DNA from: Candidatus Omnitrophota bacterium
GTDB taxonomy: Bacteria; Omnitrophota; Gorgyraeia; 2-01-FULL-45-10
Assembly (NCBI GenBank): GCA_028715345.1
Contig: JAQUSB010000008.1
Location: 437-64,436, forward strand
Length of the DNA stretch: 64,000 bases
Direction of reading: 5' to 3'
Below, piece after piece: positions 2,606 through 7,252 of this stretch. The translations under genes were made by a program, and so were the position numbers. The notes under the pieces are model-generated. The model had not been told where the DNA came from, ran no database searches, and worked only from the letters and a program-made list of their open reading frames with translations. Within the stretch, counting starts at the first letter, position 1; each line of letters starts with the position of its first letter.

Positions 2606-3418
2606 TTGCCTTTGATATTCGGCGCAAAACTTTTTACTTTTCCCGATAACTTCCGGACTATTATAGGGTTCTGCCTGTTTTCGATGATGAGCAGTACCGT
2701 TTACCTTGTGAACGACATACTGGACCTCAGTATCGACAGGTCGCACCCGACCAAGCGCCTGAGGCCCTTGGCCTCGAAAAAAGTTACCGTCGGACAGGCA
2801 TGGCTCGCAGCCGTTATTTTAGGGTCTCTGTCGATCTTTCTGGCGTTCGTATTCGATATTAATTTCGGTATCGTTCTCATCGTATACTGTGTGTTCAACA
2901 TCATATATTCCAATGCCCTGAAGAATGTCGTTATCATAGACGTCTTCTGCCTCGCGCTCTTCTTTTACCTGCGCATAATTGCCGGAAGCATAACGGCGAA
3001 CGTCGGACTATCCCACTGGATAATATTCATGACGATCCTTCTGGCGCTTTTCCTGGGATTCAACAAGCGGCGCCAGGAACTGCAGGTGATAGATAAGGAA
3101 TCGGGTTATTACCGCAGGGTCCTTTCCCACTACAACCCGTATTTTATCGACCAGATGATATCGGTGATCACTTCTTCCATCGTCGTGGTGTATATGCTTT
3201 ACACCATAGACGCCAGGACGATAAAGGAATTCGGCACCACGCACCTGATGTACACGATACCATTCGTATATTACGGGATATTCCGCTACCTGTATCTGAT
3301 CCATAAACTGCATAAGGAAGGGAATCCGACGGATATCCTGTTTTCCGATATCAAGCTTGCTGTAAATTTGGTTTTGTGGGGCGCGGTATCTGTCGCGGTA
3401 ATATATTTCAAATTATAG
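2606..3418 (+). CDS. UbiA-superfamily polyprenyl-phosphate transferase, resembling decaprenyl-phosphate 5-phosphoribosyltransferase (DPPR synthase)
   Basis: Asp-rich motif NDILDLSIDRSHPTKRLRPLAS (NDxxDxxxD...HPTKR...RPLxS) after the first TM helix, followed by a multi-TM hydrophobic body. TTG start; the frame is open back to a stop at 2531-2533, so the true start may be slightly upstream. Confidence 0.7.
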   Translation: MPLIFGAKLFTFPDNFRTIIGFCLFSMMSSTVYLVNDILDLSIDRSHPTKRLRPLASKKVTVGQAWLAAVILGSLSIFLAFVFDINFGIVLIVYCVFNIIYSNALKNVVIIDVFCLALFFYLRIIAGSITANVGLSHWIIFMTILLALFLGFNKRRQELQVIDKESGYYRRVLSHYNPYFIDQMISVITSSIVVVYMLYTIDARTIKEFGTTHLMYTIPFVYYGIFRYLYLIHKLHKEGNPTDILFSDIKLAVNLVLWGAVSVAVIYFKL

Positions 3419-3427
3419 GATGAAAAA

Positions 3428-4462
3428 ATGAAACTTGCCATAACGGGCGGATCGGGATTTTTAGGGTATCATTTATGCGACAGGCTCTCGGCCAAATATG
3501 ACGAGATATTTGTGCTGGACATAGCACCGATAATCGCGGGCGAATATCCTTCGAACGTAAAATATCTGAACACCGACATAAGGGACCGGAAAGCGGTCGG
3601 CAACGCGTTGAAAGATGCCGACATGGTGATTCATGCCGCCGCCGCGCTGCCTTTATGGAAGAGGCAGGATATTTTCGACATAAACATTAACGGGACGGCA
3701 AACGTCCTGGAGGCCGCGAAGGAGAGAGGGATAAAAAGGGTCGTATATGTTTCATCGACCGCGGTGTACGGGATACCCAAAGAACACCCCATATACGAAG
3801 ACAGCCCGCTCGTCGGGGTAGGCCCTTACGGGGAGAGCAAGATAGCCGCGGAAAAGGTATGCCGCGGTTTTAGCGATAAAGGCATGTGCGTGCCGATAGT
3901 GAGGCCCAAGACATTCATAGGGACGGGGAGGCTCGGCGTATTTTATATATTGTACGATTGGGTAGAGAGCGGCAAGCGAATACCTATTATAGGCAGCGGC
4001 AAAAATCATTATCAATTGCTCGAGGTGGATGACCTGGCCGACGCCATACAGATGCTCCTTGAGGCCCCCGCCGATAAAGCGAACGATGTTTTTAATGTCG
4101 GGGCCGAAAAGTTCGGGACGGTAATGGAGGACCTTACGGAAATGTGCGCGTTCGCCTCGACGGGCGCGCGCGTTCAGCCCACCCCGGCAATGGTAGTAAA
4201 GCCGATGCTTGCCTTATTCGAGAAGATGAAGCTGTCGCCGCTTTATAAATGGGTTTACGGTACGGCCGATAAGGATTCCTACGTTTCCATAGACAGGATA
4301 AAAAATTCATTAGGCTGGGCGCCCAAATACAGCAATTCACAGGCATTGATCAGGTCTTATGAATGGTATCTCGCGCATAAAAAAGATATCTCGGGAGAGG
4401 GGATAACCCATAGAGCAGCGTGGGCGCAGGGGATCTTATCGCTAATTAAAAAAGTCATGTGA
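3428..4462 (+). CDS. NAD-dependent epimerase/dehydratase (extended SDR family)
   Basis: N-terminal Rossmann motif ITGGSGFLG, catalytic YGESK (YxxxK), length 344 aa, good RBS (aggatga). Confidence 0.8.
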   Translation: MKLAITGGSGFLGYHLCDRLSAKYDEIFVLDIAPIIAGEYPSNVKYLNTDIRDRKAVGNALKDADMVIHAAAALPLWKRQDIFDININGTANVLEAAKERGIKRVVYVSSTAVYGIPKEHPIYEDSPLVGVGPYGESKIAAEKVCRGFSDKGMCVPIVRPKTFIGTGRLGVFYILYDWVESGKRIPIIGSGKNHYQLLEVDDLADAIQMLLEAPADKANDVFNVGAEKFGTVMEDLTEMCAFASTGARVQPTPAMVVKPMLALFEKMKLSPLYKWVYGTADKDSYVSIDRIKNSLGWAPKYSNSQALIRSYEWYLAHKKDISGEGITHRAAWAQGILSLIKKVM

Positions 4463-6279: not shown

Positions 6280-6304
6280 GCCCGTCCCCGGCCAAAGGTC
6301 CGGA

Positions 6305-7252
6305 ATGAAACGTTTTATCCCCGAGATATCGTTAACCTTATTTACCCTCTGTATATCCTTGATATTGACACGCCTCGCAGGGGTCAATTTTTATTTTTGC
6401 CTTCGTGAAATATTTTACATAATGGGCAAGCCGATCTTTTTATATTGTTTTCCTATCGTTACGCTGTATGTGATATGTTCCGGGTGCGCTAAAAGATACA
6501 CAACGAATAAGGGAAGCGCTAAAAAAACGCTCGGCTCTTTGGCCGTTGCTTTGTTTTTGCTGTTTCTGATGGGAATTTTTTATGTAGGCATATCGAATAT
6601 AAAACCGCTGGTCCCTCTTTATAGCAGGGAAGTCTATGACGGCCTGCTTTTACGCGCGGACACTCTTCTCCTGGGCGGTTTTGATTGGCCGGCCCGGATA
6701 TGCAGGTTCCACAATCCTTTTTTGAACAAGATATTCAACATATCCTACCTTTCTCTTTTTCCGATGTTCGGAGTTACCATATCATTTCTTGCTTATACCA
6801 AGAACATATCTGCCATGAGAAAATTTATACTCAGCCTGATGATAGTGACCCTGATAGGGAACTTGTGGCACTTCCTGATGCCTAGCATGGGGGATGTTTA
6901 TATAAACCCCGCCAGGTATGCCGACATAAGCGGCGTCTATGTCAGGAATATCCAGGACTTTCTCTATAACAAACATCTGGAGATATTATCCGCTCCCGGG
7001 AGTTTTCGGACAGCCCCTTTTATAGGCATAGCCGCCATCCCGAGCGTTCATATAGCTAATTTTCTGATCTTTATGTTCGCCATTCGCGGCTATTCGCGGT
7101 TATTATCGGCCGTGTATAGTGTAGTCTTTATAGGATTATTTTGCTCTACTTTATACTTTGGATGGCATTATATTATCGATAATATTGCGGGAGCCGTTAT
7201 GGCTTCTGCGGTATATTTTTATGTGGGCAAGTACACAGAACGGCATTCGTGA
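6305..7252 (+). CDS. PAP2-superfamily-like integral membrane phosphatase/phosphotransferase
   Basis: Multi-TM protein with PSVH (PSGH-like) and WHYIIDNIAG (HxxxD) motifs resembling PAP2 / PAP2_C catalytic motifs 2 and 3. The assignment is motif-level only. Confidence 0.45.
   Translation: MKRFIPEISLTLFTLCISLILTRLAGVNFYFCLREIFYIMGKPIFLYCFPIVTLYVICSGCAKRYTTNKGSAKKTLGSLAVALFLLFLMGIFYVGISNIKPLVPLYSREVYDGLLLRADTLLLGGFDWPARICRFHNPFLNKIFNISYLSLFPMFGVTISFLAYTKNISAMRKFILSLMIVTLIGNLWHFLMPSMGDVYINPARYADISGVYVRNIQDFLYNKHLEILSAPGSFRTAPFIGIAAIPSVHIANFLIFMFAIRGYSRLLSAVYSVVFIGLFCSTLYFGWHYIIDNIAGAVMASAVYFYVGKYTERHS

Follow-up and report, generated by a model that had tools for sequence, protein, structure and literature searches.

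A cassette of four genes, lying between pilC and two prepilin genes in a 64 kb stretch of a Candidatus Omnitrophica metagenome-assembled genome (MAG), the window analysed here, is proposed to be a glycosylation module in which a pentofuranose derived from phosphoribosyl pyrophosphate (PRPP) and linked to polyprenyl phosphate is passed to pilin as acceptor. The probability of this full model is put at somewhat better than even, about 0.55. That two of the products, a UbiA-family transferase and a 606-aa membrane protein of the GT-C class with tetratricopeptide repeats (TPR), form a lipid-pentofuranose glycosylation pair is a narrower proposition and is held with considerable confidence. The sugar and the pilin acceptor are both deduced, and confidence in the identity of the sugar is low. 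The remaining two genes encode an extended short-chain dehydrogenase/reductase (SDR) and a polytopic membrane protein of the PAP2_3 family. As each of the four has many homologues, they are not chance open reading frames (ORFs), and the cassette relates to systems already known in Pseudomonas, mycobacteria and Citrobacter. A preliminary description of this DNA had located the four ORFs exactly (2606–7252, + strand, between pilC and the two prepilin genes); its view of the type of chemistry was right, the target it proposed is plausible and the novelty it claimed was overstated.

The phosphoribosyltransferase

By every sequence criterion applied, the UbiA-family protein is a PRPP-dependent polyprenyl-phosphate phosphoribosyltransferase. 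The ORF as listed scores 240.8 bits on NCBIfam NF008977, the decaprenyl-phosphate phosphoribosyltransferase equivalog (297 positions, cutoff 234 bits), with the match beginning at profile position 24. Ahead of the TTG at 2606 the conserved frame continues to about 2540 and stays open as far as 2534, with IIGYILLSLRPKQWAKNLF aligning with residues 12–30 of Rv3806c; when the upstream residues are added the score becomes 260.1 bits and the match extends over profile positions 5–288 of 297. Residues 3–290 align with 12–299 of the Rv3806c structure, PDB 8j8j (E 1.5e-36), and the motif NDILDLSIDRSHPTKRLRPLAS is aligned with NDVRDVEADREHPTKRFRPIAA of Rv3806c. Identical in the two proteins are N73, D74, D77 and D81 (NDxxDxxxD), the HPTKRxRP stretch and the equivalents of Tyr70 and Tyr138, the two tyrosines that sit at the reaction centre of the solved Rv3806c structure (PMC10994848).

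The models for haem O synthase, UbiA (quinone) and ChlG reach at most 30 bits on the cassette protein, against 260.1 for NF008977, and its reading as a quinone or haem prenyltransferase is out. The earlier assignment to the decaprenylphosphoryl-5-phosphoribose (DPPR) synthase type is upheld, and the clustering with quinone or haem enzymes that had been set beforehand as refuting it is not what the model scores show.

A further UbiA-type phosphoribosyltransferase is present on a 6.6-kb human-faecal contig labelled bacteriophage (L042, MT837543.1, positions 898–1746). At 39.9% identity it is the highest among the matches in annotated phage and plasmid collections, and it recalls a published mention of a phage-borne pentofuranose system.

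The GT-C membrane protein

An NCBI protein from a Candidatus Omnitrophica MAG matches the 606-aa protein at 100% identity and is annotated merely as 'tetratricopeptide repeat protein'. TPR repeats, at residues ~410–600, are all that Pfam and NCBIfam detect. No Pfam model matches the transmembrane (TM) domain (residues 1–400), and nothing was found for it in sequence and profile searches of PDB sequences. The protein has the GT-C transmembrane fold: fold comparison gave 18.8 with Pmt4, 18.2 with ALG12, 17.3 with AglB, 16.7 with both Pmt2 and STT3B, 15.7 with ArnT, and 14.1, 12.9 and 12.7 with AftA, AftB and AftD respectively. Hydropathy, the positive-inside rule and the helices of an AlphaFold2 model predict ~11 TM helices, with the N-terminus inside and the TPR domain periplasmic.

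Among 19 full-length homologues, 29–70% identical, the invariant residues are D35-D36, D56, F61-R62-P63-x-K65-N66, A122-P123-x-Q125, Y184-E185 and H263, together with a further block, N332...P335...G339-P340...Y344-Y345-L346. D35 and D36 come directly after TM1, and all of the invariant residues fall on the predicted periplasmic side. The preliminary description had read a GT-C architecture from the sequence, with a DD in the first outer loop and a TPR domain at the C-terminus; fold comparison and topology prediction bear this out and place both on the periplasmic side, and the lack of a GT-C fold that was to have told against it did not materialise.

Searched on its own as a profile, the TM domain finds the PMT_2/DUF1736+TPR superfamily (E 1e-8 to 1e-24), a very large bacterial group that some sources annotate as 'protein O-mannosyl-transferase'. 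In an exhaustive HMMER search among 1.84 billion representatives of clusters at 50% identity, 178 cluster representatives came in at E<=1e-30; relaxing the threshold to E<=1e-10 raised the number to 15,295, and to E<=0.001 to 50,840. The 606-aa protein therefore belongs to a small subfamily, not covered by any Pfam model, within a huge GT-C+TPR superfamily. It is a candidate protein O-pentofuranosyltransferase.

A distant TM-profile match (cluster representative P0137, E 4e-7) is a 644-aa VFDD protein in locus L036 (8001–16048). It has no Pfam hit, and its gene lies between a phosphomannomutase-type gene and GT4/GT2 genes, directly upstream of pilB-pilC-pilD-coaE-zapD; no pilin gene is called there.

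Comparison with TfpW

TfpW of Pseudomonas aeruginosa group IV (Pa5196/PA7) is a 646-aa protein with a cytoplasmic N-terminus, 11 predicted TM helices and a periplasmic TPR C-terminus, for which ArnT can serve as a modelling template. Its first periplasmic loop holds an essential DDX, and one of the late ones a conserved YX6PFX7P. The gene is next to pilA, and tfpW, pilA and the D-arabinofuranose (D-Araf) genes are clustered in P. indica and Kingella denitrificans (bioRxiv 10.1101/2020.04.19.049825). Going by this description, the cassette protein shares with TfpW the build of a GT-C protein of ~600–650 aa: ~11 TM helices, DD(X) in the first periplasmic loop and, at the C-terminus, a TPR domain in the periplasm. 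Both have their gene beside the major pilin and pilBC and a donor that begins with a UbiA-type phosphoribosyltransferase, and for neither system is a dedicated flippase established. The position beside the major pilin that marks TfpW systems is found in the window and in three loci of relatives (L007, L001 and L009). In the late loop the cassette sequence P340-F341-SDYYLVV-P349 fits PFX7P, the tyrosine of the motif being replaced by I333 (I, L or V in relatives); P340 is invariant in the family, and P349 is present in at least 90% of sequences. The window differs in having one extended SDR and no DprE1/DprE2, a PAP2_3 protein as the phosphatase candidate and an Omnitrophota host.

Among the matches of the TM-profile search none bears the name TfpW, and unannotated cluster matches of ~645 aa gave no names; one of these, P0156, adjoins pilBCD together with GT2 and GT4 genes, has no pilin called beside it and is not shown to be a TfpW. 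A scan for the family motif in GTDB data, with one genome per species, gave six loci, all from MAGs of the Planctomycetota-Verrucomicrobiota-Chlamydiota (PVC) group or unclassified and none from Pseudomonas. The claim made here, by analogy, is that the cassette GT-C would work like TfpW, not that it is a TfpW.

Pilins and the neighbourhoods of relatives

Pilin 1 is likely to be the major pilin and is the candidate acceptor. In its mature form there are serines and threonines after the N-terminal helix (T54, S59–S61) and in the C-terminal GSTSTP. These positions agree with the alpha-beta-loop sites of the Pa5196 pilin, an agreement that is no evidence in itself. When pilins next to other members of the GT-C family are aligned, they too have serines and threonines, in the variable stretch after QWAxxxG. 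Both pilins of the window had been credited with Ser/Thr-containing C-termini on the strength of GSTSTPAHVLP; this is the end of pilin 1 only, and pilin 2 ends CTYEDEGHKI.

Locus L007, whose GT-C protein is 70% identical, has the UbiA, SDR and GT-C genes in the same order, followed on the opposite strand by a HAD hydrolase gene, a pilin gene 0.8 kb from the GT-C gene, pilC and pilB. The inverted arrangement implies that the link with pilus genes survives rearrangement. Two pilin genes stand directly beside the family member in L001 (34% identical) and in L009 (36%). Locus L017, from an Opitutaceae MAG (30% identical), has a HAD-UbiA fusion gene (NF006088, 578 bits) divergently adjoining the GT-C gene, a DprE1-like flavoprotein (NF053785, 388.6 bits where the cutoff is 500) with a DprE2-like SDR, and then three membrane proteins, two of them with weak PMT_2 matches; a pilin is 4.9 kb away. 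The association with pilins suggested at the outset recurs, in L007, L001, L009 and L017; a constant pilus setting is not seen, several relatives having no pilin.

In L009 (1350–10456, the same as L013) the two pilin genes lie amid genes for four large membrane proteins, all possible glycosylation enzymes: a 730-aa Wzy_C+TPR protein (PglL/TfpO-like), the GT-C+TPR family member, a 603-aa FVWDD-type TPR protein and a 520-aa polytopic protein.

The SDR, a candidate epimerase

The 344-aa SDR has TGGSGFLG and Y134-x3-K138, and where dehydratases and decarboxylases have acidic residues its SSTAVYG segment has none, which together give it the look of a GalE-type epimerase or a reductase. Its reading as a 4,6-dehydratase is out, there being no TDE/TxE motif. 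The nearest PDB entry is 8rdg, a GDP-sugar 4-epimerase. The family to which it belongs comprises more than 120 clusters, 61–69% identical and nearly all of 343–346 aa, in Omnitrophota, WOR-3, Latescibacteria and Chloroflexota, and has no curated family assignment. A conserved amphipathic tail, GITHRxAWxQGxLxxxKK, ends the proteins of this family (P0168–P0287) and, to judge from its sequence, would suit an enzyme of the membrane surface.

The order UbiA-SDR repeats in four loci (the window, L007, L020 and L031) with two SDR subclades. In L020 and L031 the pair adjoins other putative GT-C proteins, one of which weakly matches AftB (E 0.002). Plasmids with a PPPRS gene were scanned for an ORF13-like SDR (see below); the Flammeovirgaceae and Burkholderia clusters among them carry DprE1/E2, and the extended SDR of the Burkholderia cluster, 23% identical to the cassette SDR, is uninformative.

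The PAP2_3 protein

Membership of the PAP2 superfamily, as the preliminary description had it, is supported by the PF14378 match and by the catalytic motifs C2 and C3 (PSVH at 246, HYIID at 288). The equivalence to mycobacterial Rv3807c implied there does not hold. The C1 motif KxxxxxxRP was not found in the protein, and BLASTP against a Tsukamurella orthologue of Rv3807c (a 184-aa PF01569 protein from a glf-glfT2-PAP2-UbiA locus) gave E 0.94, no significant similarity. The catalytic histidines are predicted, by the positive-inside rule, to be periplasmic. No PDB relative was found by sequence, and there is a weak NCBIfam match to phosphoinositol-ceramide synthase. The protein is a candidate ribose 5-phosphate phosphatase or phosphotransferase; roles as a periplasmic phosphatase and as a phosphotransferase are equally open. 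With C1 lacking, the histidines predicted on the periplasmic side and no significant similarity to the Rv3807c orthologue, its use as the 5-phosphatase is the weakest link of the model.

Where the window has PAP2_3, L007 has, between the GT-C and pilin genes, the gene for a HAD-IA hydrolase (3694–4398, − strand). This protein has generic HAD-IA matches only. It is not significantly similar to the HAD domain of the fusion protein in L017, which leaves unsupported both its identification as a PRP-type phosphoribose phosphatase and the idea of a phosphatase swap.

Comparison with other pentofuranose and mannose systems

The loci of Citrobacter youngae O1/O2 encode ORF15 (PPPRS-PRP), ORF14 (MATE), ORF12 (a GT-C of family GT136) and ORF13, an SDR epimerase; in O2 the latter is a single cytoplasmic GalE-like SDR that turns undecaprenyl-P-ribofuranose into the xylofuranose donor, and in the pentofuranose systems surveyed ORF13 homologues accompany xylofuranose (Xylf) and DprE1/E2 accompany Araf (PMC11127046). 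The proposed module follows the same logic. Polyprenyl-P-ribofuranose-5-P is the product of PPPRS and loses its 5-phosphate to a phosphatase, the pentose may then be altered by a single GalE-like SDR, and its transfer by a GT-C takes place outside the cytoplasm. Compared by the description of ORF13, the cassette SDR has TGxxGxxG and YxxxK, and its gene adjoins that of the PPPRS. The differences are that the Citrobacter acceptor is an O polysaccharide, that the ORF12 GT-C has a carbohydrate-binding module and no TPR, that the HAD phosphatase is fused to PPPRS and that a MATE flippase is encoded.

Given the ORF13 precedent, arabinose is not the default and the prior shifts towards xylofuranose; the arabinose product presumed in the preliminary description was without support. 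Nor is the module 'undescribed', as was suggested there, since both TfpW pilin arabinosylation and single-SDR xylofuranose systems are already published.

The mycobacterial decaprenyl-phospho-arabinose pathway (Rv3806c, Rv3807c, DprE1/E2, AftA-D, EmbA-C) differs in that the cassette is without DprE1/E2 and its PAP2 protein is not orthologous to Rv3807c, and in that the likely acceptor is a protein, not a cell-wall polysaccharide. From the PMT (GT39), TMTC and bacterial PMT_2+TPR proteins the cassette GT-C differs in having no Pfam match for its TM domain and in the small size of its group (only the 178 clusters), and its gene context indicates a pentofuranose donor, not mannose.

Points against and alternative explanations

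Several observations weigh against the module as proposed. The organism is represented by an uncultivated MAG. No ATG, GTG or TTG is available for the conserved UbiA N-terminus (the RPxQWxKN segment), the first being the TTG at 2606; a rare start codon may be used, for which ATC at 2543, with AAAGG 6 nt before it, is a candidate, or the assembly may be in error, and the UbiA homologue in L020 starts with an ordinary ATG. The PAP2_3 gene, besides encoding a protein not similar to the Rv3807c orthologue, is absent from the closest relative, L007, and for the protein an active site on the periplasmic side is predicted, while the chemistry of PRPP takes place in the cytoplasm. Among the ORFs scanned in the 64-kb window, which are otherwise mostly housekeeping genes, there is no MATE, SMR or GtrA flippase and no DprE1/E2 (no FAD_binding_4, no DprE2-type SDR); that a DprE1-type FAD oxidase is missing had been recognised in the preliminary description. 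The SDR may have a general role: its family has no UbiA or GT-C neighbours in all three contexts sampled from other phyla, and the UbiA-linked SDRs of L020 and L031 are merely 47% identical to that of the cassette. About half of the contexts of the GT-C family are without an adjacent pilin. These include L008, L010 and L034 and also the verrucomicrobial members, which have a conserved M48-peptidase / SH3 / CHASE2-cyclase setting. Prepilin-like genes are abundant in PVC-group genomes, so that pilins some kb away may be there by chance.

The alternative that survives best, though unlikely, accepts the donor pathway and the GT-C chemistry and has as acceptor another periplasmic or surface protein or an envelope glycan, the position in the pilus operon then reflecting co-expression or chance insertion. 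It would account for the contexts without pilins just listed and for the UbiA-SDR pairs of L020 and L031 amid GT2/GT4 polysaccharide genes, and the characterised PPPRS/GT-C systems do modify O antigens. The C-terminal TPR of the cassette protein is, however, a protein-binding domain and not a carbohydrate-binding module as in ORF12 and the Emb proteins, and a pilin is carried by all three loci in which PPPRS is beside this GT-C family (adjacent in the window, at the distances given above in L007 and L017).

It is improbable that the four genes do not form one pathway, with the SDR a general NDP-sugar epimerase, PAP2_3 an unrelated lipid phosphatase or phosphotransferase, and cooperation confined to UbiA and the GT-C, or absent. 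The overlap of the SDR stop codon with the GT-C start, the beginning of the SDR gene 9 nt past UbiA, the recurrence of the UbiA-SDR order with two SDR subclades and the published action of a single SDR on a lipid-linked pentose all argue for cooperation. Such independence would be consistent with the high conservation of an SDR family that elsewhere stands alone, with the GDP-sugar 4-epimerase as its best structural relative, and with the restriction of PAP2_3 to the window (the HAD gene on the other strand replacing it in L007) and its weak phosphoinositol-ceramide synthase match.

Very improbable is a non-enzymatic role for the 606-aa protein as a pilus assembly or stability factor of the PilF/PilW/Tgl type, to which the place of its gene inside the pilus operon and weak NCBIfam matches confined to the TPR region (Tgl 42.8 bits, PilW 42.5 bits, far below the cutoffs) might point, since PilF, PilW and Tgl, which are lipoproteins, lack a TM domain of this kind and the cassette protein has 400 TM-domain residues with the GT-C fold, in which the DD and ~30 other periplasmic-face residues are invariant down to 29% identity.

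Proposed mechanism

In the glycosylation module favoured here, the donor route would start with the UbiA-type phosphoribosyltransferase, for which homology is strong. The 5-phosphate would then be removed, PAP2_3 being a candidate for this on superfamily-level, and so weak, grounds. Next, the SDR would transiently oxidise and then reduce the lipid-linked ribofuranose so as to epimerise it at C3 or C2; the resulting donor would carry xylofuranose or arabinofuranose. This step is suggested by gene order and the ORF13 precedent. Once the donor had reached the periplasmic face, the periplasmic DD site of the GT-C would move the pentose to serine or threonine of an acceptor protein held by the TPR domain, most likely the adjacent pilin prior to pilus assembly; the transfer to pilin is proposed because of fold, topology, synteny and the analogies with TfpW, PMT and TMTC. 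By analogy also, the likely benefit would be the masking of the pilus from phages or predators, or its stabilisation.

A more particular version is doubtful. In it, Omnitrophota would O-glycosylate pilin with a pentofuranose other than arabinose, e.g. xylofuranose, the 344-aa SDR alone would epimerise polyprenyl-P-ribofuranose, and a periplasmic PAP2_3 would dephosphorylate the exported donor or add a phospho-substituent. Either of these periplasmic roles would depart from every described DPPR pathway.

Implications

If the pilin glycosylation model is correct, O-pentofuranosylation of pilin would extend past a few Proteobacteria to Omnitrophota and probably to bacteria of the Verrucomicrobiota group, and a small GT-C+TPR subfamily outside Pfam models would be defined. 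The PRPP-based lipid-pentose donor module would appear as interchangeable in its parts: epimerisation could be carried out by an SDR or by DprE1/E2, dephosphorylation by PAP2_3 or a HAD enzyme, and the acceptor could be a protein or a polysaccharide. Among the Omnitrophota are ultra-small cells that may depend on hosts or be predatory, so modified pili could affect attachment and phage evasion. The enzymes could also serve glycoengineering, for the attachment of pentofuranose to proteins.

Locus layout and transcription

The features of the locus are collected in the table. The pilB gene is cut by the left edge of the window, and its translation from base 3 extends the alignment with the 574-aa PilB of L007. 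The close packing reported earlier is confirmed, with a gap of 9 nt between UbiA and SDR, an ATGTGA overlap at 4457–4462, in which the end of the SDR gene shares bases with the GTG start codon of the GT-C gene, and a gap of 25 nt before PAP2_3.

Between pilC and the end of the cassette there is no strong terminator, and directly after the PAP2_3 stop codon is TTGACA-17-TATACT, the top + strand promoter-like site within 2300–8400. The cassette is therefore most likely to ride on the pilBC transcript, with the major pilin expressed separately. Pilin 1, with its own promoter-like site and terminator, is probably not co-transcribed with the cassette. The co-transcription of the cassette with pilBC supposed in the preliminary description is most likely sound. 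Between the promoter-like site and the start codon of pilin 1 is an AT-rich leader of ~175 nt (7284–7459).

Features of the pilus locus and of the cassette, in window coordinates
Feature	Position	Strand	Matches and remarks
pilB-type assembly ATPase	27..1304	+	Pfam T2SSE E 2.2e-132; cut by left window edge
pilC platform protein	1308..2519	+	Pfam T2SSF E 2.1e-64, two copies
UbiA-family gene	2606-3418	+	PF01040 E 1.5e-18; listed ORF, conserved frame open from 2534
Extended SDR, 344 aa	3428..4462	+	Pfam Epimerase PF01370 E 9.6e-41
GT-C membrane protein with C-terminal TPR, 606 aa	4459..6279	+	
PAP2_3 polytopic membrane protein	6305..7252	+	PF14378 E 4.6e-21
Sigma-70-like promoter site upstream of pilin 1	7255..7283	+	TTGACA-17-TATACT, 11/12 matches
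Prepilin 1	7460..7813	+	N_methyl E 2.5e-8
Intrinsic-terminator-like hairpin after pilin 1	7845..7880	+	16-pair stem, then T run
Prepilin 2	7937..8293	+	N_methyl E 9.3e-9
pilM, pilN-like, pilO, pilP-like, pilQ secretin	8290..12533	+	PilM_2 E 2.9e-52; PilO E 3.5e-20; Secretin E 1.4e-36

Elsewhere in the window (38875–45850) is a run of genes for a FabA-like dehydratase, a ketoacyl synthase, an NAD_binding_4 protein (thioester-reductase-like), a ketoreductase, a second ketoacyl synthase, a nitroreductase and a flavin amine oxidase, which may be a specialised lipid or polyene cluster.

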